DNA of 63,653 bases, counting the filler, from Folioceros fuciformis (Eukaryota): NCBI GenBank assembly GCA_049999805.1. It is 8 parts of 8 records of this genome, joined end to end, with 100 filler letters (N's around TTAATTAATTAA, not from the genome) between each part and the next. Parts side by side here need not be neighbours in the genome. Positions count along the whole stretch, not along the records: positions 43,284 to 50,048 come from JBNGIO010005854.1; 7 more parts are not named here. One strand, 5' to 3'. Below the pieces are notes generated by a model that was given only the letters and a program-made list of their open reading frames with translations, had not been told where the DNA came from and ran no database searches. The translations under genes were made by a program, and so were the position numbers. Below, piece by piece: positions 18,051 through 59,378 of the stretch (its first letter is position 1; the number at the start of each line of letters is the position of its first letter).

Positions 18051-18074
18051 GTGCGTGTGATTTTCATCATCATA

Positions 18075-29864: not shown

Positions 29865-29964
29865 NNNNNNNNNNNNNNNNNNNNNNNNNNNNNNNNNNNN
29901 NNNNNNNNTTAATTAATTAANNNNNNNNNNNNNNNNNNNNNNNNNNNNNNNNNNNNNNNNNNNN

Positions 29965-34269: not shown

Positions 34270-36328
34270 ATCGCCAGCTGATGGTACTGCTGAAGGCCCT
34301 TGATCGTGATTGATCCCGCCGTGCAGATCCCGCTGTCCGTCGATCAAGAAAATCTGCAGAACTGAATAAGATGAAGCACGCCTACGCTGCGCAGCTGCTG
34401 CTGGCTCAATTGAGTCTGGACCTGGGTTCCGAGGTATTGTGGGTTTGCGAGCACGTTATATTGGCTAGAGCTCCCGGATTTGCCTGCCATAATGGATTCA
34501 GCGCCCCTGGGCGCCAATATGCTTGAGAGCCTACCACAACAGTGGATACCTGCAAGCTGACGGATCACTCCTCCTCGGAGGCAGGTATCTGCACTTGGGT
34601 CCTGCCAAATCAGTTCATGAATGTCGTCACCTCTGCCGATTTCAGCAAACACCACGGAAAAGGCTGCGGGCCCGGAGCACAGCATACCGGTCCTTCCCCG
34701 TTCGCCATGGCCGATGAGGCCGGCAGCCCGATCCGGCCGTCACTTGGTCGTTGCCGGCCTGGCCCCTGTCCGATCGCCTCATGTCCCTCCCTACACAAGG
34801 ATTTAGTAACAATAATAGTGAATTGTACAAATAATTGAGAACGTGAACACTTTATAAATATGCAACGGACGGCAAGTTCCCAACAACACGGGGTCCATGG
34901 GGAACATTTCTTCATGGGGCGGGGCCGTGGGAACAATCCTAGGCTGTGTCTATTCATTGCTCTCAGGCTGCTACTAACCAACATTTCATTTCGTTTGTTA
35001 CTGGGCTTGTGTGTTGCCTCCCATTCTTTCTCCAGAGCTTGTGTCCTTTGGCAGTAATATTGGATTGGCAAGCGAATCAAATTTCGTTTCCTGTAGGATC
35101 TTTGGACAGGTTGTGTTCATATGCTTCCAACGTTAATAGCGAGAGGTGCATTTTTCACTTCCAGCCTTCTATTCGTCCTTAATTGTCCGTATTCTTGGTG
35201 CAAGAGGTGATATCAGTGATGGAGTTCAATTCATATTCACCACCATTGTTAGTTCTCCCTTTGAATGGCCTGTCCTAATATGGATACGGTCATCGGGATT
35301 CTGTTGGTGTGAGGGAAAAAGCTGCCTTGATAAACGGCGGCAATTTGGGCCATCACAGAGATGACCACATCAGCTCAATGCCCCCTACTCAATGCCTCAT
35401 TTTTCCTTTGTCTTGGACAAATCTTTCTCACACAGGAGACGATCATCTTTGTGTGGGTGATGCTAAGGTTTGCTATGTTACCAAGGTTTCAGTGGTTGCA
35501 GTGACCATACGGGCTTTGGGCTTCCGTGTAAATGAGCATAGGATCTTTCCGGTGGATGCAACTGAGCGTAGGAAAGCCCATGGACATAGGACTCAGATTA
35601 GGAGGGTCCCAGAGAAATCTGCGCTTTCTTATTACCATATCCTTGCATTATTATCAGAGACGACCTACCGAAGGAGCCCATTCCCACTCTTCTGCCACTC
35701 TGTTGCCCTAGAAATAGCTACACAGGATGGAAAGGGGTTCAAACGTCCCTCTGCACTAGGGGCACTAATGAGGTCGTTGTTGCCACCAAGCACCTCCAAA
35801 CATGGACTGTCGCATTGCGTGCAAATTCTCTATGATAATGCTGCTCCCGGGCACCAACAATACGGCCTCCAGGGCCCATTTCTTGCTGGCTTGAGACGAG
35901 GGCGCCACCCACATTTTACGATGCCAAGATTGGGCTTCGTTTTACAAACGCTACCAAGTTTTTGTAGGCATTCTTCCAAACAATCTGTCGAGACTGAAAA
36001 CAATCACGATGTGGGCGGTGTCCCTATCGATTTTCCCTAGTCCCAATCATCGAACGTGAATATTGACTTATAGCAGCAGATGATAGTGGTGTGAAAGAGA
36101 TGAATTTGTGAAGGCTGAAGGTCAAGATTGAACATCTGACGCATACTGATTCCCAGTTTTTCGAGTCACAAGCCTGACTGCCTCACACGGAGCCATGGCT
36201 GCCTGGAGGCTTGAGCGCAGTCTGGGAAGAGCTTCGTCTGGCCTGACTCTGAGGAACAAAAGGCTTCCAAACAACAACGGAGCCGGTCGGTGCAGCAACA
36301 AATTTGCAAGAGATCAACCCCGATTAAG

Positions 36329-39300
36329 AGCATGTGTGGTGGCTGGAGGCTCGTCTCCAAGCGAGGCCGTCTCCAGGAACCATTTTGGCGACAAGGCTTT
36401 CCGGACCTCAGATTCTGCCAACGTGGCAACAGTCTTCGTTCAGCTGTCTTCCGGCATATGCAGGCCCAGGGAGTCCTGTTTTCCTGCAACTTATGTGAGG
36501 CAGTCGGGGTAGATGCTCATCCTGGAGCTCTGGGTGTCAAAATGGTGTGTAGGGAGTCGAAGTCGCACTGGAGCTTGCCGTATGATGCTGGCCCTTGTAG
36601 GCCCGTAGAATACAGATCGAGGGTAACGTCTGAAACCGTGACCAAGCTGTGTGATGAGGGACGTGCTAGGGAGGCCGTTGAGGCTTTGGGATTGCTGGTG
36701 CAGACAAGCTGTCCTGTTTCCAGGTACCTCTTTTATGCTGTGCTGAAGAAGTGTGCAGTCGAGAAGGACCTTGTTCTAGGCCGTCGGGTTCATGCTTTCA
36801 CAATTAGAGGAGGATGCGGTTCGGACTTGTTCCTGTGCAATCACATGCTGCGAATGTATGCTGCTCATGGCAGGCTGCAGGACGCCGTGGATGTGTTTGC
36901 GATGGTGGCTGAGCCGGATGCCTTCATGTGGTCTTCCATGATGTCTGCGCATGTCAAACATGGGCAAGACAAGCAGGCTGTACAACTGTATCGGCGGATG
37001 CTCAGGTCACGTGTGGGGCCAGATAGCCATGTCTTTGTGGCAGCCCTTCAGGCTTGCGCAAGGGGGTCAGATTTGGAAACTGGGCATCAGGTGCATGCCG
37101 ACATGCTAGCCAGTGGAGTCGAGTGTGATACGTTTGTGTGGAATTGCTTGGTGTACATGTACGCGAAGTGTGGCAGGTTGGAGGAGGCTCAGAGAGTGTT
37201 TGAGGGACTTGGTCAGAAAGATGTGGCGTCGTGGAATGCATTGATCGCCGGGTATTCTCAGCAGGGCATGGGCCACGAAGCCCTTCGCCTTTACATGGCT
37301 ATGCAAGAAGAGGGCATGTCTGTACCGGATTCAGTGACATTTTTGAGCCTCCTACAGGCATGTGCGAATGTGGGCAGCCCAGCTTTGGAGAAGGGAAAGG
37401 AGTTAGAGGCTCAACTTAGAGAACAAGGATATGATGCTGACGTTTTCGTGGCCAGCAGTTTAGTCAACATGTATGCCAAGTGTGGCAGCTTGGAAGACGC
37501 ACAGAGAGTGTTTGCAGGTCTTTCTCATAAGGACGTTGTAACATGGAATACCATGATATCAGGCTATGTGCAGCAGGGTATGAGCCAGGAAGCCCTTTGT
37601 CTTTACAATGCCATGCAACAAGAGAGTACGGCTGAACCGGATTGTCTGACATTTGTGCGCCTCCTGCAGGCATGTGCGATTGCGGGCAAGCCAGCTTTGG
37701 AGAAGGGGAAGCAGCTTCATGTGCAAATCAGAGTGCAGGGACATGAAACTGATGCCATTGTAGCCACGAATTTGGTAAACATGTATGCCAAGTGTGGCAG
37801 CTTGGAAGATGCCATGACTGTGTTTCAAGGACTTGGTGAAAAAGATGTGGTGGCCTGGACTGCTATGATGTCTGGCTATACTCAGCAGGGCAAGGGCCAG
37901 GAAGCACTTCGCCTCTACAGTACTATGCAACAAGACAGTGCCAGTATTGCAGATAGCGTGACATTTGTGTGCCTCCTGCAGGCATGTGCAACTGTGGGTT
38001 CCCTGGCCTTGGAGACGGGGAAACAGCTTCACGCACATATCAGAGGGCAAGGGCATCAAGTTGATATTTCTGTTGCGAATAGTTTGGTAAACATGTACGC
38101 AAAGTGTGGCAGCTTGGTCGATGCTCGCAGAGTGTTTGAGGAACTTGGTGAAAAAGATTTGGTGACTTGGAATACCATGATGTCAGGGTATTCCCAGCAG
38201 GGTATGGGCCAGGAAGCCCTTCATCTGTTCAGTGCCATGCAAGAACATGGCATCTCTGTGCTGGATTCTGCGACATTTGTGTGTCTTCTGCAGGCATGTG
38301 CAAGTGTGGGCACCCCAGCATTGGAGAAGGGGAAGCAGCTCCATGCACAAATCGCAGAACCTGATGTGTTTGTGGGGAACAGTTTGGTACACATGTATGC
38401 AAAGTGTGGCAGCTTGGAAGATGCTGAAAGTGTGTTTGGGGGGCTTCATGAAAAAGATGTGGTGACGTGGACTGCTATGATAGCAGGGTATTCCCAGCAG
38501 GGAAAGGGCCAGGAAGCCCTTCAGCTTTACCGTTTAATGCAAGGAGATGGCCTCACTGTCCCCGACTGTGTGACGTTTGTATGCCTCCTGCAGGCATGTG
38601 CTAATGTGGCAGCTGTGTATCTCGGGAGGCAGCTGCATGCCCAGATTGAAGAGAAAGGGCTTCAATATGATCCATTCGTGGCAGGGAGTTTGATAAACAT
38701 GTATGGAAAGTCTGGGAGCATGGTTGAAGCTCAGCAGGTGTTTGACGCCTTGCCCAAGAGAGATGAGGTCTCCTGGAGTGCGCTGATTGCGGGCTACACC
38801 TCTCAGGGAGACAGTGAAGCTGTCTTTGACTTGATCGAGAAGATGAAACAGGAGGCCATACAGCCAGTCAGCGTCACATTCCTCTGTGTACTTACAGTAT
38901 GTTGTCATTCGGGTCTAGTGAACAAAGGGAGAGAGTACTTCGAGTGTATGAGCAGACACCACGGCATCACTCCCACCGTGGAGCACTATACATGCATGGT
39001 GGATCTCCTGGGCCGTGCAGGCCGCCTGGATGAGGCACTGAGGTTGGTACGGTCAATGCCTGTAGTGCCGAATGCTGCAATTTTTCACACTTTGTTGGCA
39101 GCCTCCCAAAAGTGGAGCAACGTTGAGGTGGGACACCAGGCTTTTGTGCAAGCATTGAATCGCGACAAGAGTGATTCGGCAGCATATGCCTTGATGTCCA
39201 ATATCTACAGGGGTGCTCACATGTGGAAGCACGCGGATGAGGCTCAGGCGAGGAGAATAAGGATGAAAGCGTGGAAGCCTCCGGGTCAAAGCTGGTGGAC

Positions 39301-39376
39301 AGACTCGGATGGACTGGTGCACAGTTTTTTGGTTGAGGATAGGAAGCCTTCAAGAGTCTTGCAAGGCATCAAATAG
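36329..39376 (+). CDS. PLS-class pentatricopeptide repeat protein, E+ subclass (WW-type PG box), organellar RNA-editing factor
   Basis: Intronless ~1000-aa ORF with about 7 P-L-S triplets (MYAKCG period mostly 312 bp), P2-L2-S2 (HYTCMVDLLGRAG), E1/E2 (AAYALMSNIY) and KPPGQSWWTD...VHSF, then stop. Start codon uncertain (~36329 or 36542). Confidence 0.95.
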   Translation, partial: SMCGGWRLVSKRGRLQEPFWRQGFPDLRFCQRGNSLRSAVFRHMQAQGVLFSCNLCEAVGVDAHPGALGVKMVCRESKSHWSLPYDAGPCRPVEYRSRVTSETVTKLCDEGRAREAVEALGLLVQTSCPVSRYLFYAVLKKCAVEKDLVLGRRVHAFTIRGGCGSDLFLCNHMLRMYAAHGRLQDAVDVFAMVAEPDAFMWSSMMSAHVKHGQDKQAVQLYRRMLRSRVGPDSHVFVAALQACARGSDLETGHQVHADMLASGVECDTFVWNCLVYMYAKCGRLEEAQRVFEGLGQKDVASWNALIAGYSQQGMGHEALRLYMAMQEEGMSVPDSVTFLSLLQACANVGSPALEKGKELEAQLREQGYDADVFVASSLVNMYAKCGSLEDAQRVFAGLSHKDVVTWNTMISGYVQQGMSQEALCLYNAMQQESTAEPDCLTFVRLLQACAIAGKPALEKGKQLHVQIRVQGHETDAIVATNLVNMYAKCGSLEDAMTVFQGLGEKDVVAWTAMMSGYTQQGKGQEALRLYSTMQQDSASIADSVTFVCLLQACATVGSLALETGKQLHAHIRGQGHQVDISVANSLVNMYAKCGSLVDARRVFEELGEKDLVTWNTMMSGYSQQGMGQEALHLFSAMQEHGISVLDSATFVCLLQACASVGTPALEKGKQLHAQIAEPDVFVGNSLVHMYAKCGSLEDAESVFGGLHEKDVVTWTAMIAGYSQQGKGQEALQLYRLMQGDGLTVPDCVTFVCLLQACANVAAVYLGRQLHAQIEEKGLQYDPFVAGSLINMYGKSGSMVEAQQVFDALPKRDEVSWSALIAGYTSQGDSEAVFDLIEKMKQEAIQPVSVTFLCVLTVCCHSGLVNKGREYFECMSRHHGITPTVEHYTCMVDLLGRAGRLDEALRLVRSMPVVPNAAIFHTLLAASQKWSNVEVGHQAFVQALNRDKSDSAAYALMSNIYRGAHMWKHADEAQARRIRMKAWKPPGQSWWTDSDGLVHSFLVEDRKPSRVLQGIK

Positions 39377-40047
39377 AAGTTTTGAGCGGGAAAAGCAATG
39401 CTTGCATGAGCGCAGCGATCTGACCCCTACGTGCAAATTTTGCATCCCTTCCCGCTGTCACAGAGCGCTCACAGGCAGTAGAGTCGCAGATTTAGCATTT
39501 GCAAGCAGCCAGTTCCAGCCACCTCAAACTTAGTTTACTTACGCCTGAGTTCACGACATCGGCGAGGGCTGGTCTCCACGGAAGTTCATGTAAGCAGGGG
39601 GCAAGTTGAGCCCTCTACAAACCTCCAGCCTGGTTCTGCCACGGAGCCCTGTGCTCTCCTCGGCGATGTAGCTTACCAGATACCCTCACATATATTGCAG
39701 CATTCGTGGAGGGATGAAATTTGGGCTAATACAGAGCCTCGGGCCTGACGATAGCGGTATTCCACACAGGCCCGAGTGCGGGGAGAATCTTCGCTGCACC
39801 AGACTCATATAATACTTACTATTTATGCATGCAATGGGATGGATGGCTAAGTAATAAGGCTTGGTTTGTTTCGTTATACACAGCAGCCCGCTTGACGAGA
39901 TCAGTATTCCACACCCTAAGGCTATTGAGACTATGTATGTCTTCTACNNNNNNNNNNNNNNNNNNNNNNNNNNNNNNNNNNNNNNNNNNNNTTAATTAAT
40001 TAANNNNNNNNNNNNNNNNNNNNNNNNNNNNNNNNNNNNNNNNNNNN

Positions 40048-41028
40048 CTTGTAGCCTTGTACACCAGCACCTACAGCCGTGGTCAGCAGCGTGCTCTCCA
40101 GCAGAGTATGCCCTCCTGCTGCGGGATCAGAGGGCGTATCAACAGCGTGCCCTCCAGCAGAGTGCCCTCCCGCTGTGTGCCCTCCTGCTGCGGGATCAGA
40201 GGGCGTGATCAACAGCGTGCCCTCCCGCAGAGTGCCCTCCACCTGCAGCTCCTCCTCGAAGTCCATGACATGGCAGGCCGCCATGTCCGGCCCCTGATCC
40301 ACCACCATGTCCCGCATCTGGTCCGGCACGGGCACGGGGACGGGCACTGGCAGGGGCAGAGCCAGGGACCGGATTTGCTCGTCCGGCCGACATCCCCACC
40401 TGGCCTCTGCCTTCTTGTGGTTTTCAGAGTTAGCATGGCAGCGCAATGCTGACAGCTGCAGGTTCCTGCACCCGGATCCCTTCCCCCAGGGCGTGTCCAG
40501 CCCGCCCTCCTCGTAGTACTCGCAGTTCATAACGGTCTCCCCGCTGGGCTTCTTCCTGGTGATGACCCACGGGTAAAGGTACCTCCACGCGTTGCGTAAT
40601 TGGCGCTTGAAGAGCTTCTTCTTGAGACTGGCGGAGCTGGCCAAGCCCATATCCACGCCTCCTTCTTGCTCGTCCCCCCTTCCATTCCCAAAACCCGGCT
40701 CGTGCTCGTGATCCTGATCCTGCTCTTGCTCTTGCTCCTGCTCCAGCTCCAAGTCGTTGGCATCCCCGTCCCTGTCCTCCTTGTCGTCCTCGAAATCCAA
40801 GTCATCCTCGCCGTCGGCCCCGACGTCGTTGCTGCCCTCCCCAAGACTGGCGCTCCCGCTCCCGCTTCCCGCGGGCCTCATGCCATCCTGTAGCCCGTCC
40901 CCGGGGAAGCGCGGATACGCATCCGCGCCGGCAAGAAGCGCCCCCAAGGTGACAGCCTTGCTCTTTCTTGGCCTGGCGGGCTTGTCTGCCAGGCCGGCAG
41001 CGGCGGACGCAGAGGCAGCGGCCGACAT
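40048..41028 (-). CDS. Protein with a TTF-type (hAT-related) zinc finger, acidic tract and GGH-rich repeats; truncated at contig end
   Basis: RQLRNAWRYLYPW...MNCEYYE...WGKGSG...LSALRCHANSENHKKA matches the ZnF_TTF-like W-PW/CxxC/HxxSxxH pattern. ATG 41028 is in frame. Confidence 0.7.
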
Positions 41029-43667
41029 CGCAGGAAGGGATCCCGCCCTTGCCCCGCCCCGTGTCACCGCAGGCCAGCCGGGCTCCGCACAGCATCTTGC
41101 CCGCTGCCCCGCAGCAGGGAAGGAGCAGAATTGAGGCGCCCCTGGTGACGAGTTCTCACATCCTGAGCAGCGCGCGTCATGGACGCATGAGGTCACGGGG
41201 CTGCCTCCAGCCCGCAGCCAGTCGCTACACGTGGGACTCAAACAGCACCAGCGCTTGCGCCATCAAAGATCTGGATCACGCCATCACAACAGCAGCGAGC
41301 GGCTGGCAGAGGCAGAGGCAGAGGCAGAGGTGAATGCAGGAGCAAGAAATCCTCATGAACCTGGTTCCCGAGCAGCAGAAGCGCACAGCGCAATTTCCAG
41401 CAGCCGCGCGTCCCGAGGCGAGGCGAGGCCCAGGCCCAGGCCCAGAGCAATTGGTGCCGGCGCCGGCCACCCTCCCCTCAAACTCCGTGCCAAGAGAATG
41501 CTAACGGGTTACAAGCCGCTGCGGGAATGGGAATTGCTACAGGCGTGCAGAGTTGCAAGAGGCAGATGAAGCCTGGGAAGAGGCGGCCCAAGGGGAGGGG
41601 AGGGCGTAACCAAGAGCTGCAGCGGCCAGCAACCCGGCAACGCAAACTCGGGCGTGGCGAATGCGAGGCCAGGCGAGGCACAGGCGAGGCACAGGCCCCG
41701 GGCGAAGGCGACGCGGACGGTGGAGCAGCTGCACCTGCAGTCGCAACAGTATGCTCGGTCCTGGAAACAGCCAAAGAGAGAGAGGCGACGTGGCGTCCAC
41801 CTCGCTTATCGCTTATTAGCTACCTGCTGCTCTGCGCTAGTACGCGTGCGTTACCTAAACCCCCAGGATTGCCCGCGCTTGCACCCCACCCACCGCCTGC
41901 TTTTGCTAATGCCACTCCTAATGCTTGTGACTATGTTTACGCTTCCTCTTACCCCTACGCTTATGCTTTTGTGGTGCTACACATCCTGGGTCGGGCCTGA
42001 ACCGGGCTCACTCTCACATGCACCACGCATATTCCTTCTAAACCGTAAACTCTGTCGCAAATGCTCAGAGCGAGCACACACACCTCAACAGCACCATTGT
42101 CCCGTGGCTCTTCCATGTCATAGCTTTCTTCTCCGCGCACACTCACCCAACAAACGCACTAAATGTGATGAAATCACAATCCATCACAGTAATAGTATCC
42201 ACAATTCAGTGGTCACTAGCCGTGTCAAAGTGATATGCTTTAGCACACCTTGGCTTTCCAAATTGTACCAGATAAGTCATCCTGTGTGAAGAAGAGTTCG
42301 TATTGGGCACTCGTAGCATCCCAGAAGCCTAGTGTTGCCTAGTGTTTAAGAGGGGATGATTGAAGTACTAGAACCGGACCATCACTGGTGTACTACAACC
42401 CACCGACTGTGGAGCTACCTCCACTTAGTCTTTAAGAGTGGATGAAGTGCAAGAACCACACCATCAATGTTGTACTTGAATCCACCCTCCTACAGTGGAG
42501 CTTCCGAGGAAGCTCCACTGTGGAAACTAGGGTTGTATGAAACATTTCAAACACTTGCTTAGTGTGTCAATGTCTTGAATGTGGTACTTGGCCTTTTGGA
42601 CATCGCACAAGTCTGTTCGACTGAAAAGTTTTGCAAATGGTACAAAAAGTATAAAGACTTGATCTCTGCCTACAATGGTACACAAGTATAAAGACTTGCT
42701 CTCTTGGATTGGGTACAAGGTTGTTCTACTTGAACAACTCTATCAATGCTTTTTCTGCAAGCTACATTATAAGTACTATGCATTCTACACAGTGTCGTCC
42801 AATGACAATGAGACTACTTTAACTATTCGCGTATCAAAGTAAATCATAGATGTTAACATGATCTCCTCACTTTGAATTGATTAGAGATGGAATAAATTTG
42901 ATCGCAAACTTTCCATCACTTGCATTAGGGTAGACATTAGATAAGCACTTTCTATCAATACATTACACCATAACTTGTAGAGAGGAGTAGGTAGGTCCGG
43001 ATCTACTGGCCCTTTCCATCTTTAGCCTTCTTCAAGTTGTTTCTCCCCATTTCTTGGGTAGTTGGAATCTCCATCTCTTTTAATAAGATAATGGATAAAT
43101 AAGAAAAGAAAGATTGCTAAGACTTGGTGACTGCCGGCACGTCCGGTCCCCACAGGCTTGCAAGTCACCTGACTGCCTTCCTCNNNNNNNNNNNNNNNNN
43201 NNNNNNNNNNNNNNNNNNNNNNNNNNNTTAATTAATTAANNNNNNNNNNNNNNNNNNNNNNNNNNNNNNNNNNNNNNNNNNNNATTGATCAACATGTTGA
43301 TTTAATCTGCATATTCATTTAATCAAAAATGGTATCAGAGCAGGTTATATGCAATCTTCATGTTATTTGATGCACATTACAGAATGCATTTACGTAAAGT
43401 TTTGTTATTCTTTTGATTTAGAAAAATGTTTTCTTGATAAGAAAACAAAACTTTTAAAGAACATATTTTGTGTTTTTTATTTATATAAAAATCCAAGAAT
43501 TCCTGGCAAATTAAGGAAGTGATCCTGGCGCATTTGTCCTGGATTGCTTTTTAAAGCAATCTCAGGACATATGCGCTAAGACAACTACCTAATCTGCAGG
43601 TAGATTGTTAGACATATTTATATAAATACAATGAACATTTAACAAAACAAAAATTTTGGCCTGATGA

Positions 43668-44411
43668 ATGGCCAATCAATTGGTCGGGCACCAGTGGCAG
43701 CCTCGCCCTACTGAGCGGATTCCACAACTTCAAAATCGCCGCAGGAGGCAAGGAGCACAAGCTGCAAGGAACGCAGTTGCTGGTCAGCTTCATCAACATG
43801 TGACCGAATGGATTGCTACAATACAAGACCAGCCTGTCCTTGCACTTGAAGTAAGGGAATCTTTCAATCCTTTGATTGAAGTGATTTATCCTGAACAGCG
43901 CCACTTGGTGATTGCCCTTCCACCCCGCAATCCTAACAATCTCCCAGAAGTTCGCGTTCAAAGAGCCTTTGATGGGAATGGTAACCCTAGAGGTTTTCTA
44001 ACAACACATGTCTCTTCACCTGCCAGTGTTGCACAGTTAGTGAACAGGATTGAGTCACATCAGCAACATGTGGACACACGCTTTAGCAGTATCATGCACA
44101 AGGTATATGCTAACAGTGTAGACTTGAGAGATTTGCAAGAGCAAATAAGTCAATTGGATTTCAAGCTTCTTACCTTGTTAAAACCATCTTTGCTTGCTAA
44201 CCCTATACACAGAGGTGTAGCCTGCAAGCATGCAACGAAAACAAGTAAAAAACATATGTTTGGAAGTCCTAATTCTTGTCCATCCTGCTCTATATATGCT
44301 TACAATAAGTGGGAGATTAGAAATCAGAAAATCAGAAACGGAATTCAACAACAAGAGTCAAAAGCTAGACTTGTAGCTGACAGACTCCCTGATGCTGTCA
44401 ACATACTGTAA
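43668..44411 (+). CDS. Intact extra ORF0 of Copia F (247 aa; basic N-terminus, coiled coil, CxH...CxxC)
   Basis: Uninterrupted ATG-to-stop ORF between PBS and the gag ATG (44527). Homologous segments in elements A and B. Confidence 0.75.
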   Translation: MANQLVGHQWQPRPTERIPQLQNRRRRQGAQAARNAVAGQLHQHVTEWIATIQDQPVLALEVRESFNPLIEVIYPEQRHLVIALPPRNPNNLPEVRVQRAFDGNGNPRGFLTTHVSSPASVAQLVNRIESHQQHVDTRFSSIMHKVYANSVDLRDLQEQISQLDFKLLTLLKPSLLANPIHRGVACKHATKTSKKHMFGSPNSCPSCSIYAYNKWEIRNQKIRNGIQQQESKARLVADRLPDAVNIL

Positions 44412-44526
44412 CTGAGCTGCATGTGCATTACATGTTTGAAGTCTTGAGTCTTCTAACCCCTGCAAAGCCATCACCGAATCTTAGTAATTTTGGGAGTAGC
44501 TAACCCAAAAATACCAAAGGGGTAAA

Positions 44527-47500
44527 ATGGCATCTGCAGTAGATACCTCATCTAGCTTGGGTGGGGAAGGGTTCAAGGAGAAAGATAGGTTTGGAGGTCA
44601 GGATGACGACATATGGGTAATCCGCATGAAAGGGGCCTTACAAAATAGGAAGTTGTGGAAGGTAGTCATTGGGGAAGAGAAGGCCCCAGTGGCCCCCACA
44701 CCTCCCACATTACCTACAGCTGCTGAGAAAAAGTTAATTGATGCATGAGATGCAAAGGATGAGGAAGCTATGTTCCTCATCAGGAGTGGTCTTACCTCAG
44801 AGATGTTAAGACAGACTTCAGAATGTACAACCTTAGCAGAAATATGGATAAGACTTCAAGACCTGTATGCAGGCAGCAACCAAACAAGTCAAATGACAGC
44901 TTTGAGAAATTTACAATTATGTAAAATGAGAGAAGGAGAATCAATCGAAAAGCACCTTTAGGACACTTGTGTCCAGACTTGAAAGTGCTTCAAACGAGGT
45001 TGTTAAAGATGATACACTAATACTTTACTTCCTCATATCCTTACCAGACTCTTGGTCACATTTTGTGACCTCCTTCAATGCCTCGAGACTCCAGACTGAG
45101 AAACTTGCAAAGGCAGCAGGTGTAATCCTGCCAGAAACCAGCTTTGCAGAGTTAGTGGGAGCCTTATTGCAAGAGGAAGCAAGCAAATCTTACAACAGAC
45201 GAGCTGGTAAGCAGCAAGCCCTCTATACATCCAACAGAGGACGTGGAGGAGGAAGACCCTATAACAGGGGTGGGGGCAGTACCTCGAGAGGTGGTGGTTC
45301 ACAAGGACGTGGAACCAGCCAAAGAAAACCCAAAAGGACAGGAACTTGCAACTGGTGCAAATTACCTGGTCATTGGGAGCGTGAGTGTAGGAAAAAGCAG
45401 GCTGGTGTACCTCGCAAGGAGGGTTCGACCAGTGCTGAGACTCACATGGTTGTTAAGAAGCAACCAACCCCCTCTGCCCTCACAGTTGGTACAACAGTGT
45501 TTGCCACAAGTTCATCCTTGTCACCTGCTTGTTTGTTAGCAAATACAAAGGTTAAGTATACCATAGATTGGTACTTAGACACAGGGGCTACTGCCCATAT
45601 TTGCCTAGACAGAAAAGCATTTCAAACGTACAAATCAGTTAAGGATCAGTACGTATACCTGGGGGATGACAGATCTCTGGTGTCTCCTGGCATTGGAACA
45701 ATAGAACTGCTTGTTCCATCAGGAAATGTATTAGTGTTGCATGATGTGTACTATGTACCAGACATGACACGTAACCTCATTTCAGTCAGAAAGCTGAATT
45801 CTGATAATCACTGTCACATTCTCTTTATTCAAACAGAATGTCAAGTATTAGATGCCTTTAATCATACTAGAGTACTTGCCTTTGGGTCTTCTGAGAAGGA
45901 CTTGTTCCGTCTACATACAGATAGAAGTATACCATTTTCTCATTTGACCAAGGATGCTACTCATGCATCTGCACAGCAAATAGAAAAGTCAAAACTATGG
46001 CATTTACGATTAGGGCACCCACATTCAGCAAAATTACAGAAATTAGCTGTAAGTGATCTTTACCAGCATGGGCAGATAGGTCCTCTGGTGCCATTTCCTT
46101 TGTGTGAGTCTCGTGTTCTCTCAAAGCGGCATCAAGCAGCCTTTAAGAACAAAGAACCACACAGAGCTACAGATGTCCTGGAACTTGTTCATACGGACTT
46201 ATGTGGACCACTCTCACAAGAATCCATTGGTGGTGGCAAGTATTTCCTGACATTTACAGATGACAAGACAAGGTTTGTAACAACCTATATCTTAAAGCAA
46301 AAGAGTGAATGCTTCAGCTATTTTAAAGAATATCTCAAGTATGTTGAAAGGTGGACTGGAAAACAACTAAAAACCCTAAGATCTGATAACGGGGGAGAGT
46401 TTACCTCAAAGGAGTTTCAGGACTACTGTTTAACTGAGGGTATTGGACGCCAGCTTACAGTTGTCTACACGCCTCAACAGAATGGTGTGGCTGAGCGCCT
46501 CAATCTTACGTTGCAGGAGATGACATCTTCTCTCCTACATCATGCTCAACTGCCCCTGCCATATTGGGCAGAGGCCATTATGACATCAACCTATCTCAAA
46601 AACAGATTGCCTACCACTTCAGTAGTTGATCTTACCCCTTATGAAGCGTTCACAGGGCGCAAGCCATCCATACTTCACTTGCGTATCTTTGGTTGTAAAG
46701 CATACGCCTTTGTTCCTAAGGAGAAAAGAAAGAAGCTATTAGATAAGGCTAGAAAACTTCTGATGTTAGGCTATACAGAGGGCATCAAAGCATATAAACT
46801 TTATGATATACTTTAAAATAAAGTTATCTACGGTAGGAGCATTACTTTTGATGAAGGTAGCACTTGGGCCTCAGTGGGAGTATCCCAGGATCCTCCTCTT
46901 GGTGACGAAGAGGCATCAGCGTTTCAAGATTCACACTTTGACCAGACTGATCATGGCACTCAAGTTGTTCCTGTTGAGGATGTTGCCCCTGTGGGTGGGG
47001 TAGATCCGGCTGATGATATTGATGATTCAGCAGGTTTTGATGATGTAGCTGTAGAACCTGCACAACAAGATGTTCCAGACAATCATCAGGATCAACAGGA
47101 CCATCATCCTCCAGAACCAATTGCTGATCCGATTGAGCCTACCTTAGATGCTGAGCTTGTTCACCCTCCAGTTGCTGAAGAACCAGTTAGAAGGTATCCC
47201 ACCCGCCAGCGACAACCTCCTGACTACTACCGTGCTCTGGATTTCCGAGTTTCTTCTTCTCATGTGACTGTCAATGCTGCCACTTCTCTTGATCCCATTG
47301 AGCCTCAATCCTATGAAGAGGCGTTGCGTAGACCTGATCACAAAGAATGGGAAAAAGCAATTCAATCAGAGTATGACTCATTAATGGAGAACGGAACATG
47401 GGAACTAGAGGAGTTACCTCCATAAAGAAAGCTAGTTTCATGCAAATGGGTTTTCAAAATGAAGGTTAAGGCAGATGGTACCTTCGATCGTTACAAGGCT

Positions 47501-48891
47501 CGTTTGGTGGCAAGGGGATTCTCTCAGATCCCTAGCTTGGACTATCTTGAAACGTTTTCTCCAGTAGTCAAGTTGTCCACTCTTCGAATTATCCTTGCCA
47601 TATCCACACATTACGATTATGAGTTGCAAATGTACGATGTCAAAACAGCTTTCTTATACGGCAAATTAGACACAGAAATATACATGCAGCAACCGCCTCG
47701 ATATGTAGTGAAGGGTAAAGCAAACTATGCCTGTAAGCTGATCAAGTGTATATATGGGTTAAAGCAGTCAGCTATGAAATGGAATGCTGCCCTAGATACA
47801 GAACTTCTACAGCTTGGATTCACAAAGAGCCAGGCAGACAGCAGTCTATACATATACTCGAAAGGAGAGGTTATATGCTATCTGGCAGTCTACGTGGACG
47901 GTCTGATACTGTCCAGTAACAGTCAGGCCTTTATAACAAGCATTACAGATGTGTTGGCCACTAAGTTTAAGATGTCATGTTTGGGACCCTTACAGAGCTG
48001 CCTTGGAATACACATTCAGAGGGATAGAAAACAACGGGTTATGACTCTTACTCAACCACGTTACCTTCTTGATTATGTTGAACAGCTAGGTTTAAAGGAT
48101 GCCAAGCCTGCATCGACACCCATGGCAGCAGGTCAGAAACTTAGCAAGGCTATGTCATCAACTACACGTGATGAGAAAGAACAGATGAAGGGCGTACCTT
48201 ACAGACAAGGTGTTGGCAAGCTTATATACGCTAGTAACACGACGAGACTTGAAATAGCTTATTCTACAAGTGTACTCTCCCAGTTCTTGGAAGATCCAGG
48301 ACTGGAGCATTGGACAAGTCTTAAGCGTGTGTTCAGATACCTGAAAGGAACACCCAGATTAGGTATCACGTACAAGTATCAAGAAGGAAAAGCATTGGAC
48401 CTGGAAGTCTTTACTAACTCTGATTATGCAGGTGATATTGATAGCAGAAAATCAGTATCTGGTTACCTGATTAGAATTGCTGCAGGGCCAGTTTGCTGGT
48501 CAAGCAAAAAGCAGCCTACAGTCGCTCTTTCTTCGACAGAAGCAGAGTATCGTGTACTGACTGCAGCAGCAAAAGAGGTAGCTTGGTGTAAGCTACTGTT
48601 TAAGGAGTTAGGCATCTCGATCCCAACTTGTACCACAATACAAACCGACAACCAAGGTTCGATGGCTTTAGCCAAGAATCCAGTGTTCCATGCACGAACG
48701 AACACGTGGAGGTGGAATACCATTACATCAGAGGACTGGTAGCAGAAGGAAAGATTGAACTTCACTATGTCTCAACTCAAGAAAACCCGGCAGACATACT
48801 TACAAAGGCTTTGAGCAGAGATGCTCACAACAAGCACATTCAGCGTCTTGGTATGGGAGAGGCACAAGCCTTCTCATCCAGTACAATCTAA
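44527..48891 (+). pseudogene. Copia F gag-pol polyprotein with several lesions
   Basis: FKEKDRFGG, CNWCKLPGHWEREC, WYLDTGAT, LRSDNGGEF, YVDG (degenerate YVDD), SSTEAEY. Stops at 44746, 44959, 46814, 47423 and a frameshift near 48700. Confidence 0.95.
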
Positions 48892-48904
48892 CAAGAAACC
48901 TAGC

Positions 48905-49843
48905 CTAAAACACCGGTGACTCATAGCCATCAAAATAAGCAGAGCATCCAAAGTCTATCTCGTCTCCAGACTGCTGGGATTCGGAAGTAGACTCATCTTC
49001 TATTGGGTAAGGGTTGTGACAGCCACCAGGTGACAGATCTCCAGGAAAGCCAGGATGGACTCTTTTCTTGAGAGGGGTTTCTTCAACTCTCAGCCTTTCT
49101 TCCTTCTTAGCCTCCTCCCTGAGTCTCTGTATGTAAACCGAGAAACAAGAAGATTGTAAGTAATCCTGCAAAAGATAACAGCAACAAAAGGACTTGATAC
49201 AGCAAGCAAGAACAGCAGCAGCTACTCACTGTACGTGTTGACCACATGGACAGGGATGTTCTCACACACTTCGACCTTCATGCGCTGCATCTTCAATTCA
49301 GTAAGACCGACCCACACCAAATACCAGAAAGGTGAGCAAGGATGCTCCAGTGATCCACAAGTGACAATATGGGTCTTCATGAAGCCGTGCCTTGGCTTTG
49401 GGAACTTCGCAGGCACACGCCGTGCTGGGCCATCTTCGTAGTAAGCAAAATCAAGGTTCAGAACTCTGACCAGAGGGGTGTATCCAGTCTGTGGCGGCGG
49501 AGAAGAGTCGTGAGTGTCCATATATTGCTGACCAGCAGCAAGTTCAGCATTGCGCCACTCCAAGACTTTTTTTGGTTGTCCCCTTCGGCCTGCCAACAGC
49601 TCGCTTGCTACAGGAAGCCTTTGTCTCAGCGGTTTGATCACTTCTGGTAGTTGTCTTAGTCGCAAATCTTCCTAGGGCGTCACGCTTGTGACGGCGGCGG
49701 TGCTTGGGAGCATCGGAATCAGAACCAGAAGACATGATGAAGAGAAGGCACGAGATCCAGCGCTCCAGCAGCTCAGACAATGCAAGAGACAAGAACCAGC
49801 TGAGTTTTATGAAAGCGGCGGCATCACCACCAGAACTCATCAT
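48905..49843 (-). other. Antisense coding-like region of Copia F (three consecutive ORFs, possible 64-nt intron 49229-49166)
   Basis: ORFs 49843-49544, 49665-49222 and 49171-48905 tile the whole pol-to-PPT gap. GTGAGT...TCTTTTGCAG intron-like segment. Confidence 0.5.
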
Positions 49844-50148
49844 GCTCAGCTGGAGAACGTGGAGCGCAATTGTGTACAGTTGTCTTTGGGACGTAACACG
49901 CAGTTGAAGTAACGTTCACGAGGACTGAGCGGCGGCGTACCGTGCGCCGGAACGTACACCTAAATCATTATCAGCAAGTGGGAGTGTTAAAGAGTATTCG
50001 CATACATATGCTGATTATATTTAGGGCACGTTTGGTTAGCTTAAGTGANNNNNNNNNNNNNNNNNNNNNNNNNNNNNNNNNNNNNNNNNNNNTTAATTAA
50101 TTAANNNNNNNNNNNNNNNNNNNNNNNNNNNNNNNNNNNNNNNNNNNN

Positions 50149-53100
50149 TCCTGCAAGAGCAAGATCCAGCGAGCTATGCGGCCCGATAGGTCTGCCTTGT
50201 TGACCAGGTGCTTGAGAGCAAAATGATCAACATGGAAGACAAACTCATAGGAGAGGAGGTAGTGGCGGAATTTACGACAAGAGTAGACCATGCCAAGTGC
50301 CTCCCTCTCGGTTGTGGTGTACTTGCGTTCAGCCTCCGTAAGTTGATGTCCAACATAGTAGATTGGGTAGTCCCTCCCCTACTCATCCCGCTGGCTAAGG
50401 ACTGTCCCAATGGCAAAGGCTGAAACATCCACGTACACATGGAATTTCTTGTCCCAATCAGGCCCCTTGAGTGTTGGTGCTGTCACAAGAGTGGTCCTCA
50501 AGTCCTGAAATGCAGCCTCCCTCGCCGCTGTCCACTCCCAAGATTGCTCCTTCCTCAATATGCCCGTCAAAGGGGCAGCCCATCTAGCAAAATTTGGCAC
50601 GAATCGGCGGTAGTATCCCACCATCCCAAGGAAACCACGCAGCTCCTTCAGTGTGGCTGGGGCCCTCAAGGCAGCAATCACCTTCACCTTGTCCGGGTCC
50701 ACTTCAATGCCCCTTGCTGAAATTCTGTGACCTAGCAAGATCCCTTCAGCCATGCCAAAATAGCATTTCTCTGGATGCAAACAAAGCTGCGTCTCACGGC
50801 ACCTGGCCAAGCACAGCCTTAGGTGCTCTAGATGCTGCTCCACCCCTCCAGACACACAAAAATCATCTATGAACTCCTCTAGGAACTTGTGGAGGAAATC
50901 CTTGACGATCTTGTACATGCTGCGCATAAAGGACCCCGGTGCTCTTGTCAGCCCAAAAGCACTCCTCTTGTAGGCGAATGTCCCCCAATCAGTTGTGAAG
51001 GCTGTCAATGGCCAGTCACTCTCCCTGAGGGACAGCTGATTGTAACCAGAATAGCCATCCAAAAAAGAGTAAATCATGCGGCCAGCCACCAAATCCAGAA
51101 TGTTGTCAATGAATGGCAAGGGGAAATGATCCTTCTTGGTGGCTTTGTTCAGCCTTCTCCAGTCCTGGCACACTCGGATCTTCCCTTGCTGTTTCTTGGG
51201 CACCACCACGATTGGGGCCACCCAATCTGAGTTCACAATTGGAAAAATCACATCTGCCTTCAAGTATTGCTCCAGCTGTTCCTTTACCTTCATGGAGTAT
51301 TTTGGATTCAGCTTGTATTGTGGAATTCGAACGGGAACAGCGCCTGGCTCCAAGTCAATCTTGTGCTCCCCCCACTCTTTGGGAATTCCCTTCATGTCTG
51401 TCACCTCAAAGGCAAACACATCGATAAACTCAGCCAGGAGTTGCTTCATTCCCCCTTCCAATTTGGCATCCAGCTGTTTGGAAAACTTTAGCACCTTGCC
51501 TGGAAACACCTCTACATCCTTAATTTCATCAGCCTGCACCCATTCACGCTGCACGGGTGCCGAGCTGACTCCAAACCCTTCTTCCGGCTCTCGGGGATCT
51601 TCCTCCCTCATTCCCCATTCCATGAATAAGTCTTCGGAGGTGAATCTAGTGACCTCTGTATCCTCACCAGCAAGCCCTTTAGACCTTGGGTCATAGCCCC
51701 CTTCCCTCATCTCATCTTCCTTCACACCCCTCTTGGCATGGGAGGCTTTTTCCTGGCCCTTCCCTTCAGCAACTCCAGCAGCCTGTCCTTCCACGTTTGC
51801 TGCTTCAGCCCCTACCATGTTGCAGTCCAAGGTGATCCCAAAACACTCGACCCGGTTCAGGGTATAAGGAATATCCCTTCGATAGTCCTCCTCTTCATCT
51901 GTCCATGATATGTGGGAAAAAGGGAATTTATCTTCCCCTTCCCCCTCCTCCAAATCAGTTGTGTCCCCCACGGACGTGTACCCCTCCGTGTCCGTTGGGG
52001 TCTCTCTGAGGTAGACATCCCGGCTCCAGCTCAAACAAATCCTACCCTCCTTTGTCTTGGGGTTCCATTCAGGTGGTTTGAAAGCCACCTCCTTCCTTCC
52101 CCATGACAGCCTGCACCTCGATCCATACAGCCAAGTCCTGCCCAGCAAGATGTCGTAGCCTGGTGCCTTGTGTTGAATGACCACAAAATCGAGAAGGTAG
52201 GGAATGGTCCCTATGGTCGTGGTTACCCCTCTCAGCTCCCCCACTGGCTGCATTCTAGACATATCGGCCAACCTCAAGACCTTGGTTGTGTGCTCGATCT
52301 CCAATCCGAGTTTCTTGGCGGTATCCTCCGTCATAATATTCACCCCTGAACCTGTATCCAGCGGCACCCTCTTAATCACACAGCCTGCAATTTCCACCTA
52401 CAGTTCAGCCGGTCCCTGGTCCACCATGGACACCATGTTGACCATGGGAGCCGACAACCTTGGCCCTGATTTAGGTAGCCTCTTCCTTCTCTTGGGTTGG
52501 GCCTCCTGCAATGCCTTCCGGACCTGCTGTCGATATTTAGGGTTATCCTTCAGGAGCTGACCAAAGGTAATAGCAAATTGCTGGTCCATGATGGCTCCAG
52601 CCAAATCAAATGGCTTCTGGACAGCCCCATTGGTGCCTTTGGTCACCGCTGCCACCTCCCTAGGTGGCAGACTTGCAGCCACGGGTGCTGACTCCTTTGC
52701 TGCCCTATCCAGCTCCTCCTGGATCATGTCTAGTACCTCTTCCCTCACATCTGGAGGAAATTCCATGTTTCCCCCCTTTGCTGGGGCTGCTCCCTCTCCA
52801 GCCCTTGATTTTTTCTCCTTGGGGGTCTGCCCTTCCTGGTCTCCTTTCTCCCGACATGATTCCTCCACATTTGGGGTGCCCTTCTCCTCCTCCGATCCTG
52901 CAGCAGATTCCACTTCCTTCCCCTTCTTCTTGGCACCCCGCTGCCTTCCCCTTCTCTTCCCACTACGAGTACATACCGCCATGGCTGCAGCCTCCCCATA
53001 ATAACCCTCCTTAGTGCTGTCCAGCCCTTCCAGCCCCTTAAGCACCTTGGCCTCGGCCTCCTCCCAAACAGCCATGAGGGCATCCTCCACGTGCATGGCC

Positions 53101-53190
53101 GTTGCAGCCCCTTGAGGTGCTGCTTGCAGCACCCCTGTCACCGCTGGCTGAGCAATCCTCACGCTCTTCCTAGGGTTCTGACAAAGCACG
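50149..53190 (-). mobile_element. Ty3/Gypsy gag-pol fragment (protease-RT-RNase H)
   Basis: LDTGSGVNIM protease, DWRRLNKATKKDHFPLP, LDGYSGYNQ, FIDD, YVDVSAFAIG and DHFALKHL...GRIARW in PR-RT-RH order. In-frame TAG at 52398. Confidence 0.95.
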
Positions 53191-54130
53191 NNNNNNNNNN
53201 NNNNNNNNNNNNNNNNNNNNNNNNNNNNNNNNNNTTAATTAATTAANNNNNNNNNNNNNNNNNNNNNNNNNNNNNNNNNNNNNNNNNNNNGCCCAGAGCG
53301 CTCTGCCGACAGCCCGCCTCCAACGTCCCGCCAGGTTTACAGCGCCCGCCTGGCCGGCACTAGGCTGCTTGTCTGCAGTCGGGCCGGGCTGCCTGCCTGC
53401 AGCCGGACGAAGCTGCCTGTTTCCAGGCGTGACCAACCACAACCAGCCTAGGCGCCCAGCCGGGCCTCCTGCACTTCGGCTGGCCGATTTGCCCAGGCAG
53501 GTCCGCAGTCCGATCAGCCAACCTGTCCCCCCTGATCCGACTGGTCGACAGCCTGCTTGGGATCTTGCAGCTAGGCTGCTGTCTAGCTTCTTGATCTTGC
53601 CCCGGCCATCTAGAGCCCCTAGCCAGCTGTCCTGATGGACGCGATCCAGGATAGCCAGCCATGACTGTCTGAACCCTGCGTCACCTGGTTGCTGCTATCA
53701 GGCTGCCCCTTGAGCCTGTGGCCAGCCGGTCCCGTGGCCTAGCAGAGATCCTAGCCGGGATCCGATCCCGGCAGCCTGCTCGCCACCGGCGCGGGCTGGG
53801 CTGCTTGGCTAAGCTCCTCAACCGGCCATCACCAGCCAGCAGCCCCTCTACCATCCTTCTCACATACCTGGCCCCCCTCCTGGCCAGCATGATCTAGATC
53901 AGCCAGAGGCCCGTCTGGCTACGATCCAGCGCCGCCTTAGGCTATCCGGCCCAGCTGCGACCAGCCGCCATGGCCAGGCCACCTGCCCAGCCAGCCTGAA
54001 TCCGGCTGGCCGCCTGCCTGCTTGGGCCCTGCAGCCAGGCTGCTGCTTGGCTTCTGGATCTGGCCCAACCTGCTACGTCTTGATCTGCCCCTGTAGCCGG
54101 CCAGCGACCGCCTGACCTGAGCCTCACCTG

Positions 54131-55374: not shown

Positions 55375-56346
55375 TCACTCACAAATCCAAAAAAAAAGAA
55401 AACCTATCATTTCAGCATGTGGAATCCACACAGAGTCTGAAGGTTGAGCCACTAGGCCCCCCTCCATTATTGGGATTCGTCTTCTTTTGAATCCACAAGC
55501 TTCCACCGTACCTTCCTCTGTGTGGATCTCTTGGGCTATCCCTTCACCACCACCTACAAGTTTGGTAGGGGAGGGTTCCCCTTGTTCCTCAACTTGAGGC
55601 TCCTTCCCTACGTAGGGTGGGAATGTTCCCTCCGTAGATAGGGTACCTACCATTCCTACCCCTCCTCTTGTAGGTAGGTTCCCTACGGAAGTAGGTACCC
55701 CTTGTTGCATGCTCTTCCTAGCCCATAGCAGCTCCTCAGGTTCCCATTGCGAGCTCTCCAGGTCCATACTGCTGTCCTCTTGAAAGTCTGTTGGTAGAGG
55801 CACTGTCTCCAGGGCCTCACGGTCGTCATCATGTGGCCCAAGATACCTTCGCCTCGCCAATGCTGCCAGTTCCTTGTGATGAGCGAGTAGACGTTGGTGT
55901 AGGTGGAGGTTGCGATTCTGTTGAGCTAGATCTATGGTATCCATGTCAACAACCCAATCCCCACCCTCGCATCTACTCTTGTAGATATCCCGTTCAGCCT
56001 CCATCGCCCCTACCTTCAACTGTAGGTCAAGGTTTTCTTGATGAGTTGCATGAAGCTTGGTCATGCACCCCGTCAAGTAGGCATAATCAGCACGAAACCT
56101 ACGAGCTCGAACCACCAGCATCCTGTGAATCTTGGTCTGATGCTCAGCTTCTTGTTGTGCTTTCTCCTGCTGAAGGTCTTCTAATTGGATGGTCAATTGT
56201 TCCCTCTCCACTCGCTCTCGTTGCCCTGCTTCAAGTCGTTGCTGGAGTTCCTGGTTCGCTTTAGCATTATGTGCCTCCAACTCATCTAGCTTGCCTTGTA
56301 AATCCTTTGCAACATAGACTTGTTCCTGTAGCTGTTCCTCCACCAC
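55375..56346 (-). CDS. Coiled-coil ORF remnant (323 aa), probably a TE accessory ORF, 5'-truncated
   Basis: Long E/Q/L heptad-rich frame that ends at the junction with Copia H. No enzyme motifs. Confidence 0.45.
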   Translation of the reverse strand: MVEEQLQEQVYVAKDLQGKLDELEAHNAKANQELQQRLEAGQRERVEREQLTIQLEDLQQEKAQQEAEHQTKIHRMLVVRARRFRADYAYLTGCMTKLHATHQENLDLQLKVGAMEAERDIYKSRCEGGDWVVDMDTIDLAQQNRNLHLHQRLLAHHKELAALARRRYLGPHDDDREALETVPLPTDFQEDSSMDLESSQWEPEELLWARKSMQQGVPTSVGNLPTRGGVGMVGTLSTEGTFPPYVGKEPQVEEQGEPSPTKLVGGGEGIAQEIHTEEGTVEACGFKRRRIPIMEGGLVAQPSDSVWIPHAEMIGFLFFWICE

Positions 56347-56379
56347 CTTCCTAGTTTCCTCAGACTGGGCGAGGTCCCT

Positions 56380-59200: not shown

Positions 59201-59378
59201 GTGTAGCTTGGGGGGTAGTCTTGCTCTTCCATGTGAGTAGTTAACCCTGGACGGCTTACGTTAGTCACGTTTGGGGTTNNNNNNNNNNNNNNNNNNNNNN
59301 NNNNNNNNNNNNNNNNNNNNNNTTAATTAATTAANNNNNNNNNNNNNNNNNNNNNNNNNNNNNNNNNNNNNNNNNNNN

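Follow-up and report, generated by a model that had tools for sequence, protein, structure and literature searches.

A probable family-specific open reading frame ahead of gag in one Ty1/copia family of Folioceros fuciformis

Does the open reading frame (ORF) that precedes gag in a Ty1/copia element of the land plant Folioceros fuciformis constitute an extra gene of that element, and is the same gene carried by other Copia elements? The locus stands in a stretch of 63,653 nt from assembly GCA_049999805.1 (hereafter the window), for which a first-pass annotation had described one coiled-coil frame, ORF0, as conserved between primer-binding site and gag in three divergent Copia elements, here lettered A, B and F. 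Our analysis indicates that only the frame of element F, located on record JBNGIO010005854.1, is a demonstrable extra gene and that the conservation of a coiled-coil ORF0 across the three elements is unsupported: the frame in A is ordinary, the frame in B stands in the place of gag, and the resemblance between the B and F frames is marginal. The frame of F is probably a family-specific additional ORF of the 5'-forward type (aORF, or eORF for extra ORF) belonging to one Ty1/copia family of this plant.

Element F is the sole element on its scaffold (43284–50048, 6765 nt), and a second copy of its long terminal repeat (LTR), sought there by repeat search, was not found. The features of its 5' part are as follows (PBS, primer-binding site; pI, isoelectric point).

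43284–43329, plus strand: 5' LTR, last 46 nt only; the linker Ns end at 43283 and the PBS adjoins
43330–43341, plus strand: PBS TGGTATCAGAGC, exact match
43668–44411, plus strand: ORF0, intact, 247 codons, sense, between PBS and gag, pI 10.1

ORF0 starts with an ATG immediately after a stop and lies in a leader of 1185 nt between the PBS and the gag ATG (44527). An open run of 247 codons was reached by none of 1000 dinucleotide shuffles of this leader, the longest run in any shuffle being 169 codons. With a codon model trained on the other Copia genes of the window, the frame scored +0.159 bits per codon in frame 1, a value to which the absence of stops alone contributes a part, and its two remaining frames scored −0.26 and −0.37; the controls were +0.156 for the integrase (INT) of F and +0.126 bits per codon for the gag of A. 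A repeat search found no internal repeats in ORF0. The frame lies inside the element and outside gag-pol, as an aORF does and the B frame does not. Set against the eORF-5'F class of Neumann et al. 2019 (PMC6317226), it is forward, upstream and free of repeats, and at 247 codons it falls three codons under the 250-codon cut-off applied to the Ty1/copia eORFs of REXdb, so that it lies outside the class only by an arbitrary length threshold.

Other copies of the family were sought in sequencing runs, two DNA runs of the same species being found to contain two thirds of the sampled words of the F scaffold; run contigs were aligned to the scaffold at a likeness of at least 80%. Run X1 placed 508 contigs on the 6765 nt (31 at least 99% alike, 39 at 95–99%, 81 at 90–95% and 357 below 90%), and single ORF0 positions were covered by up to nine contigs. 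An X1 contig of 988 nt covers 43631–44618 with 21 differences and no gaps; as it takes in both ORF0 and the start of gag, it shows the two joined in a further copy. Over 43830–44343 (514 nt) a contig of 640 nt aligns with 92 differences, approximately 82% identity, and again no gaps. Several diverged contigs cover ORF0 positions gap-free in this way.

The differences between copies carry a synonymous excess. Among the 40 variant sites listed of 2349, 19 fall in ORF0 and 19 in gag-pol. Twelve of the 19 ORF0 sites are synonymous where a share of 0.277 would be expected (p = 0.0013), and within 43908–43967, the codons for residues 81–100 where the listed between-copy differences fall, 10 of 12 are synonymous third-position changes (binomial p = 1e-4 at the same expectation). 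At seven ORF0 sites all X1 contigs and nearly all X2 contigs (all of them at five of the seven) differ from the window, so that the changes are private to the dead copy before us; only two of the seven are synonymous, as expected for neutral decay after insertion. The listed gag-pol sites (6 of 19 synonymous) are mostly private or come from a run of bisulfite-like character, X3. Not one of the 12 listed indels lies within ORF0; they occur in the leader (43553) and the spacer (44509, 44511) and, further along, within the opening 25 nt of gag, at the pol end and in the 3' region. From run X4, which is RNA only by guess, one contig aligns to 43875–44008 and not to the parts before or after. Since it is unaligned across 43611–43874, the N-terminal part of ORF0 appears to vary between subfamilies, and since this most distant copy keeps residues 70–113, the middle is the best-kept part of the protein and not the helix that had been stressed earlier.

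The openness of the frame, its pol-like codons, the ungapped diverged copies and the synonymous differences lead us to regard F ORF0 as a real gene that appears conserved in its family, and it looks to have been under purifying selection while the family diversified. The idea of a selected accessory protein finds support in the F family, and it does not extend to A or B. In run X3 itself (DNA, same sample) C>T changes number 578 and G>A changes 519, compared with 7–52 of each other type, a pattern like that of bisulfite-treated DNA; its changes were not used, and the run could serve to read the methylation state of element F.

The protein encoded by F ORF0 can be divided into the following parts, with residues 41–115, near neutral, lying between the first and the third and including the conserved stretch 81–100.

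43668–43787, plus strand: residues 1–40, Arg-rich basic N-terminus, RRRR from residue 24, pI 12
43908–43967, plus strand: residues 81–100 VIALPPRNPNNLPEVRVQRA, site of the listed between-copy differences
44013–44183, plus strand: residues 116–172, amphipathic helix of approximately eight heptads, candidate coiled coil
44223–44288, plus strand: residues 186–207, Cys/His cluster C-K-H...H...C-P-S-C, CKH at 186 and CPSC at 204

The Arg-rich N-terminus and the CKH...CPSC cluster are thus present as the first-pass annotation had reported them, and a basic, helical C-terminus follows the cluster, itself a putative metal-binding site. Over residues 116–172 hydrophobic residues occupy 13 of the 16 a and d positions and 10 of the 41 others, so that the region has the at least four heptads with hydrophobic a/d by which a coiled coil is recognised. 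The pattern was reached by 2 of 200 shuffles in F and by 9 of 200 in B; in A it was reached by 21 of 200 and is not significant. No transmembrane-like stretch is present in F ORF0 (maximum 19-residue Kyte–Doolittle hydropathy 0.78), and with its Arg-rich N-terminus and its position 5' of gag the protein is not env-like, a class marked by a signal peptide or transmembrane segment and a position 3' of pol. The AlphaFold2 single-sequence model (mean predicted local distance difference test score, pLDDT, 45.3) places helices at 118–148 and 153–174 together with five strands, and a two-copy complex prediction for residues 112–180 scored 0.07 against a mark of 0.32, which is uninformative either way.

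Searches with F ORF0 returned no relative. A full HMMER search of 1.84 billion representative proteins gave no match at E ≤ 0.001; none of 404 candidates from a word-indexed protein search was a match, and none of 156 pattern matches in metagenome contigs was confirmed. Pfam yielded no family (best Methyltransf_36, E = 0.12) and the PDB sequences nothing significant (best major vault protein, E = 0.27), while the best ESM Atlas hits (0.79) were mixed, fusion-protein-like clusters in the range in which shuffled proteins also score.

From its composition the protein is probably a basic, nuclear or RNA-associated factor. Its two basic ends, the Arg-rich N-terminus and the C-terminus, would bind nucleic acid or provide a nuclear localisation signal (NLS), the eight-heptad helix would drive oligomerisation, and the protein may act on the RNA of the element itself, helping to export or package it, controlling its translation or protecting it from silencing. 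LINE-1 ORF1p combines a coiled-coil oligomer with basic nucleic-acid-binding parts, and the retroviral Rev-type protein, which acts on unspliced element RNA, combines an Arg-rich motif with an oligomerisation helix; the two belong to other element classes and may be taken as a working analogy only.

A further question posed by F ORF0 is by what route gag-pol, with a cistron ahead of it, comes to be translated. The downstream genes are these (PR, protease; RT, reverse transcriptase).

44527–45391, plus strand: gag, broken, in-frame TGA at 44746–44748 and a frameshift between 44930 and 44961
44930–48742, plus strand: pol (PR, INT, RT, RNase H), in-frame stops at 46814–46816 and 47423–47425

The gag has a CCHC knuckle (CNWCKLPGHWEREC), and the RNase H end of pol carries on in another frame to approximately 48920. 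Three stops (44746, 46814, 47423) and two or more frameshifts leave gag-pol dead in this copy; at such a rate of damage an intact ORF0 in the same copy is not surprising by itself. The gag AUG is well placed. Eight AUGs precede ORF0 and 15 more occur from ORF0 through the 115-nt spacer to the gag AUG, and cap-scanning ribosomes are therefore unlikely to reach gag, or would reach it rarely. If scanning fails, gag would need reinitiation, an internal start or removal of the ORF0 region by splicing, and the arrangement of start codons suggests that a spliced or internally initiated RNA is the probable template for gag-pol.

It is unlikely that F ORF0 is a fragment which the F family captured by transduction from a host gene or some other mobile element and which does not serve the element. 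Gene capture by retrotransposons is documented, the captured pieces being usually in the sense direction (Vicient and Casacuberta 2020, PMC7264820), and the codon usage of F ORF0 would fit any coding sequence. Nevertheless, no resembling protein was found among the 1.84 billion representatives, by the word-indexed search or in the metagenome contigs; the same review treats a lack of gene homologues together with many copies as an argument against capture; and the mostly synonymous differences in several diverged copies point to selection during the diversification of the family, which again argues against it.

Whether a comparable gene exists in the other two elements depends on what their frames are. 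Element A (8674–15032) is a complete Copia element with very short LTRs, the 3' LTR (14860–15032) being 96% identical to the 5' LTR, and with the target duplication TGTTG; it is nested within B (4976–18070), an older element whose RT region it interrupts.

8674–8855, plus strand: 5' LTR of A (170 nt) and PBS (8844–8855)
9123–9860, plus strand: "ORF0" frame of A, extended, 246 codons with two stops (9246–9248, 9600–9602)
10042–10815, plus strand: canonical gag of A, Pfam Retrotran_gag_2, E = 3.3e-24

The frame first described in A (9123–9602) does lie between PBS and gag and contains one in-frame stop, and in this respect the placement proposed for three elements is correct for A as it is for the intact frame of F. 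Its openness is no greater than chance: the longest stop-free run, 130 codons, was reached by 275 of 1000 dinucleotide shuffles, and two stops or fewer in 246 codons by 180 of 2000. The codon score of the extended frame (−0.095) is comparable to that of the non-coding leader of another element of the window, G; the best Pfam match was HsbA (E = 0.012), below the cut-off; and a Smith–Waterman score against the F gag that was matched by 29 of 1000 shuffles is one of 16 such tests and involves low-complexity regions. The leader of A has 52% GC, and the frame is probably a mere open stretch in a long, GC-richer leader.

Element B differs from both in its layout.

4976–5205, plus strand: 5' LTR of B and PBS (5194–5205, 1 mismatch); LTR approximately 75% identical to 17433–17669
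5425–5973, plus strand: B frame, 182 codons stop to stop, ATG at 5461
6114–6155, plus strand: degenerate gag zinc knuckle of B CNLCKIPNHMEKDY, in a frame different from that of the B ORF, leading into PR and INT

The length of the B frame was reached by 1 of 1000 shuffles, and its codon score (+0.081) is similar to that of the B INT (+0.071). The frame begins 220 nt past the PBS and ends approximately 140 nt ahead of the knuckle, the 890 nt from PBS to knuckle giving space for one gag-sized unit and not for an extra ORF plus a gag; in tblastn the gag-PR of F aligns to element B from 6096. No canonical gag was found between PBS and knuckle in any frame, and the B frame therefore occupies the capsid position, contrary to the earlier placement of it between PBS and a downstream gag. 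By position alone, it is most likely element B's own non-canonical or replaced capsid region. Compared with four gags by Smith–Waterman, its scores were reached by 190–992 of 1000 shuffles (true gag pairs have z = 37–46), and searches for homologues gave no match among 17 candidates at near lengths or 214 at longer lengths; Pfam held no family for it, the best match among PDB sequences had E = 0.42, and the ESM Atlas gave no usable match. At its other end, the 3' LTR of B carries extra tandem copies of a unit of approximately 62 nt (17561–17794, 17938–18046).

The case for one shared ORF0 had been built on a gap-free alignment of B and F over 44 residues with 12 identities, a count that is confirmed here (BLOSUM62 score 33). 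BLASTP assigned this alignment E = 22, and tblastn among the A, B and F frames gave no cross-matches at E ≤ 10. In Smith–Waterman comparisons the observed score was reached by 72 of 1000 shuffles for B–F (64–72), by 237 of 1000 for A–F and by 727 of 1000 for A–B, and with other matrices and gap costs by 35–83 (B–F) and 330–705 (A–F) of 1000; the weaker match that had been reported for A is thus no similarity. The best ungapped 44-residue window of B–F, with a score of 36, was reached by 4 of 300 plain shuffles, by 4 of 500 shuffles that keep the hydrophobic positions, by 4 of 500 shuffles of 22-residue blocks and by 16 of 500 class-preserving shuffles within 44-residue blocks, compared with 306–410 of 500 for the best A–F and A–B windows. 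Six of the 12 B/F identities fall on heptad a/d positions, with both helices in one register. Because the 44-residue length was chosen post hoc and three pairs were tried, the B–F similarity is a lead and not a finding; the shuffle test that the first-pass annotation had itself proposed comes out as marginal (nominal p of approximately 0.01–0.07), and the similarity is in part generic heptad bias. The pol sequences do not bring the three elements together either, A, B and F being as distant mutually as from other Copia copies of the window that lack such a frame (pol identity to F approximately 33–46% in most aligned pieces, tblastn), and the suggestion that they represent an undescribed Copia lineage is not borne out.

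We also consider it unlikely that a 5' accessory gene for a Rev- or ORF1p-like RNA binder is old and position-conserved in a group of Copia lineages and evolves too fast for pairwise detection. Its last traces would then be the marginal B–F similarity and the agreement of A and F in leader length and frame size, and the protein would let the element express gag-pol despite the upstream AUGs or would shield its RNA from silencing. Quite unlikely, in our judgement, is the more direct proposition that A, B and F share an ancient coiled-coil ORF0 from the common ancestor of a Copia lineage, now reduced to weak similarity. It draws on the leaders of A and F, which are equally long (PBS to gag motif approximately 1195 and 1230 nt, compared with approximately 420 nt in C and 725 nt in G, two further elements with canonical gag, shorter leaders and no long frame in the leader); on the equal size of the A and F frames (246 and 247 codons), both Arg-rich at the start; on the few pattern-preserving shuffles that reach the best B/F window and the significant heptad patterns of B and F; and on known 5'aORFs, which hold their position while sequence similarity is lost (PMC11728184). 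However, the BLASTP, tblastn and Smith–Waterman results are negative or marginal, the A frame is no more open than chance, the architecture differs in that no gag follows the frame in B, half of the B/F identities are heptad core within a length picked after the data had been seen, and the most distant F copy conserves residues 70–113 and not the helix.

That F ORF0 and the B frame are diverged capsid-like gag domains, a second gag in F and in B merely a divergent type, is very unlikely. The B frame sits exactly in the capsid position, its similarity to F is marginal, and by eye QLVNRIESHQQHV of F ORF0 resembles TLVSRLESASNEV of the F gag (6 of 13 identical). Against this, a hidden Markov model (HMM) built from four gags of the window gave negative scores on the F, B and A frames alike, no Pfam gag family matched any of the three at E ≤ 10, the Smith–Waterman scores of F ORF0 against the four gags were reached by 329–743 of 1000 shuffles (the true gag pairs being at z = 37–46), and five strands appear in the low-confidence F ORF0 model where a capsid is all-helical; the idea of a gag duplicate is rejected on the HMM and Smith–Waterman tests. 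A chance open frame without function would explain why F ORF0 has no homologue, domain or expression record, and is most improbable given 0 of 1000 shuffles at 247 codons, 10 of 12 synonymous between-copy differences and an 82%-identity copy that aligns gap-free over 514 nt.

Several points weigh against our preferred account, a family-specific additional ORF in F, an ordinary leader in A and a capsid region in B. The selection signal comes from 19 ORF0 sites among the 40 listed of 2349, its strongest part spans 20 codons only, the sites stem from few contigs that are not fully independent, and selection was read from listed contig differences and not from full sequences of copies; furthermore, no sequencing run is recorded as RNA, that status being only guessed for X4. 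The AlphaFold2 models are poor (pLDDT 45.3 for F ORF0, 35.6 for the B frame), F ORF0 has no homologues, Pfam family or significant PDB sequence match, and its proposed function derives from composition and heptads alone. The B frame is unlike canonical gag, the name gag being given to it from position only, and its similarity to F, at the nominal p given above, is possibly real.

Extra ORFs of plant LTR retrotransposons are numerous and none has a demonstrated function. Vicient and Casacuberta (PMC7264820) separate additional ORFs that most copies carry from isolated captures, and give the origin and function of the former as unknown. In Neumann et al. (PMC6317226), eORFs of at least 250 codons are recorded from 582 Ty1/copia elements and fall into 45 groups that do not resemble one another; a 5'-forward class is defined, and most eORFs have no conserved domain. 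The premise that extra ORFs are essentially unknown in Copia was therefore too strong and, such ORFs being already catalogued, F ORF0 is a new orphan example of a known feature. In the main account of that paper only the 3'-forward eORF of SIRE is described as typical of a Copia lineage, and in the literature covered, with the per-lineage eORF tables of PMC6317226 outside its scope, no description of a Copia lineage characterised by a conserved 5' sense ORF was found.

The closest working parallel is the 5'aORF of Tekay elements (PMC11728184), which in sunflower Tekay 13-2 occurs in 500 of 523 copies and encodes an NLS and helices. Like F ORF0, it is a sense ORF between 5' LTR/PBS and gag with a basic NLS-like motif and helices, conserved in its family as F ORF0 appears to be, with no known domain and no similarity to the ORFs of other families; in the comparisons reported there, Tekay 5'aORFs show no amino-acid similarity between species. 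Tekay is, however, a chromovirus of the Ty3/gypsy group whose protein of approximately 400 aa is proline-rich and largely disordered, whereas F ORF0 has 247 aa, a heptad helix and a Cys/His cluster, and no sequence relation between the two was found. Ogre ORF1 (Ty3/gypsy Tat; PMC2533021, PMC9181549) is likewise a large sense ORF upstream of gag and a stable part of its element, and the Ogre pol intron is spliced from only some transcripts (PMC6317226). It differs from F ORF0 in belonging to Gypsy, in its length (1527 bp in Mtr70) and in often carrying a plant mobile domain, which F ORF0 lacks. The env-like ORF of SIRE is, like F ORF0, an extra ORF in Copia, and SIRE is the one well-known lineage-typical case; its ORF is heterogeneous in sequence, with 19 groups, and present in 74% of elements (PMC6317226). 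That ORF is located 3' of pol and is often transmembrane, in contrast to F ORF0, which is 5' of gag and of low hydropathy. With the 3' env-like ORF of SIRE as the only well-described extra-ORF type in Copia, a compact 5' ORF of 247 aa with signs of selection and recognisable parts is a convenient candidate for functional tests; that a single accessory gene is deeply conserved among Copia lineages would be a remarkable claim, and it is unsupported here.

The window itself is a string of unplaced scaffolds and not a single locus, as seven identical linkers (44 N, TTAATTAATTAA, 44 N) join its parts, and features on either side of a linker are not true neighbours.

21827–21926, 29865–29964, 39948–40047, 43184–43283, 50049–50148, 53191–53290 and 59279–59378: linkers, each 44 N, TTAATTAATTAA and 44 N
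5194 (B), 8844 (A), 27169 (C, minus strand), 43330 (F) and 62380 (G): PBS starts

Copia coding remains occur at approximately ten places (tblastn with F gag-pol as query), and five elements have their 5' end in the window, each flagged by a PBS resembling TGGTATCAGAGC; with at most one mismatch this PBS has five matches in the window against 0.38 expected. We take TGGTATCAGAGC to be of the complete initiator methionine tRNA (tRNA-iMet) type. A tRNA-iMet PBS assignment agrees with Neumann et al. 2019 (PMC6317226). The assignment to Ty1/copia follows from the Pfam domains Pol_BBD, gag_pre-integrs, rve, SH3_retrovirus and RVT_2, found in Copia order; in F the first four lie upstream of RVT_2 (E = 5.8e-59), elements A and B have the same INT set, and all three show the order PR, INT, RT and RNase H with an RVT_2-type RT. 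LTR pairs accompany the tRNA-iMet PBS in A (96% identity) and B (approximately 75%); F displays only the PBS because its LTRs were severed at the scaffold ends.

Further observations concern other Copia copies. Copy E has PR, INT and RT discernible from 56368 (56368–59108, plus strand) and no recognisable gag upstream, and a 340-codon minus-strand frame (55375–56397) without a Pfam match overlaps the place expected for gag. The gags of A (9916–10050) and G (62960–63100) have Gly-rich/Pro-rich stretches upstream of a conserved KDRFNG motif (GGGGEGGGGGGG..PPLPP in A; PPPPPPVGIPPLQP, in another frame, in G), which may be a variable N-terminal gag extension.

Beyond Copia, the window includes an intronless gene for a pentatricopeptide repeat (PPR) protein of 1053 aa (36215–39373, plus strand) with a C-terminal E motif (PLS-type, RNA-editing class), whose 312-nt repeat period, with copies 68–74% alike, appears as direct repeats; a 2-oxoglutarate-dependent dioxygenase fragment is also present, and the two are indicative of a land plant. 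A minus-strand frame at 50379–53234 (672 + 278 codons) is Ty3/gypsy PR-RT-like, judged by eye from its translation, and contains a YSFLDGYSGYNQ-type motif that we presume to be an RT motif. Finally, a 405-codon frame at 40048–41262 (minus strand), on a scaffold of 62% GC, encodes a zf-C17orf113 zinc finger (E = 2e-11), a domain known from transposase-derived proteins.

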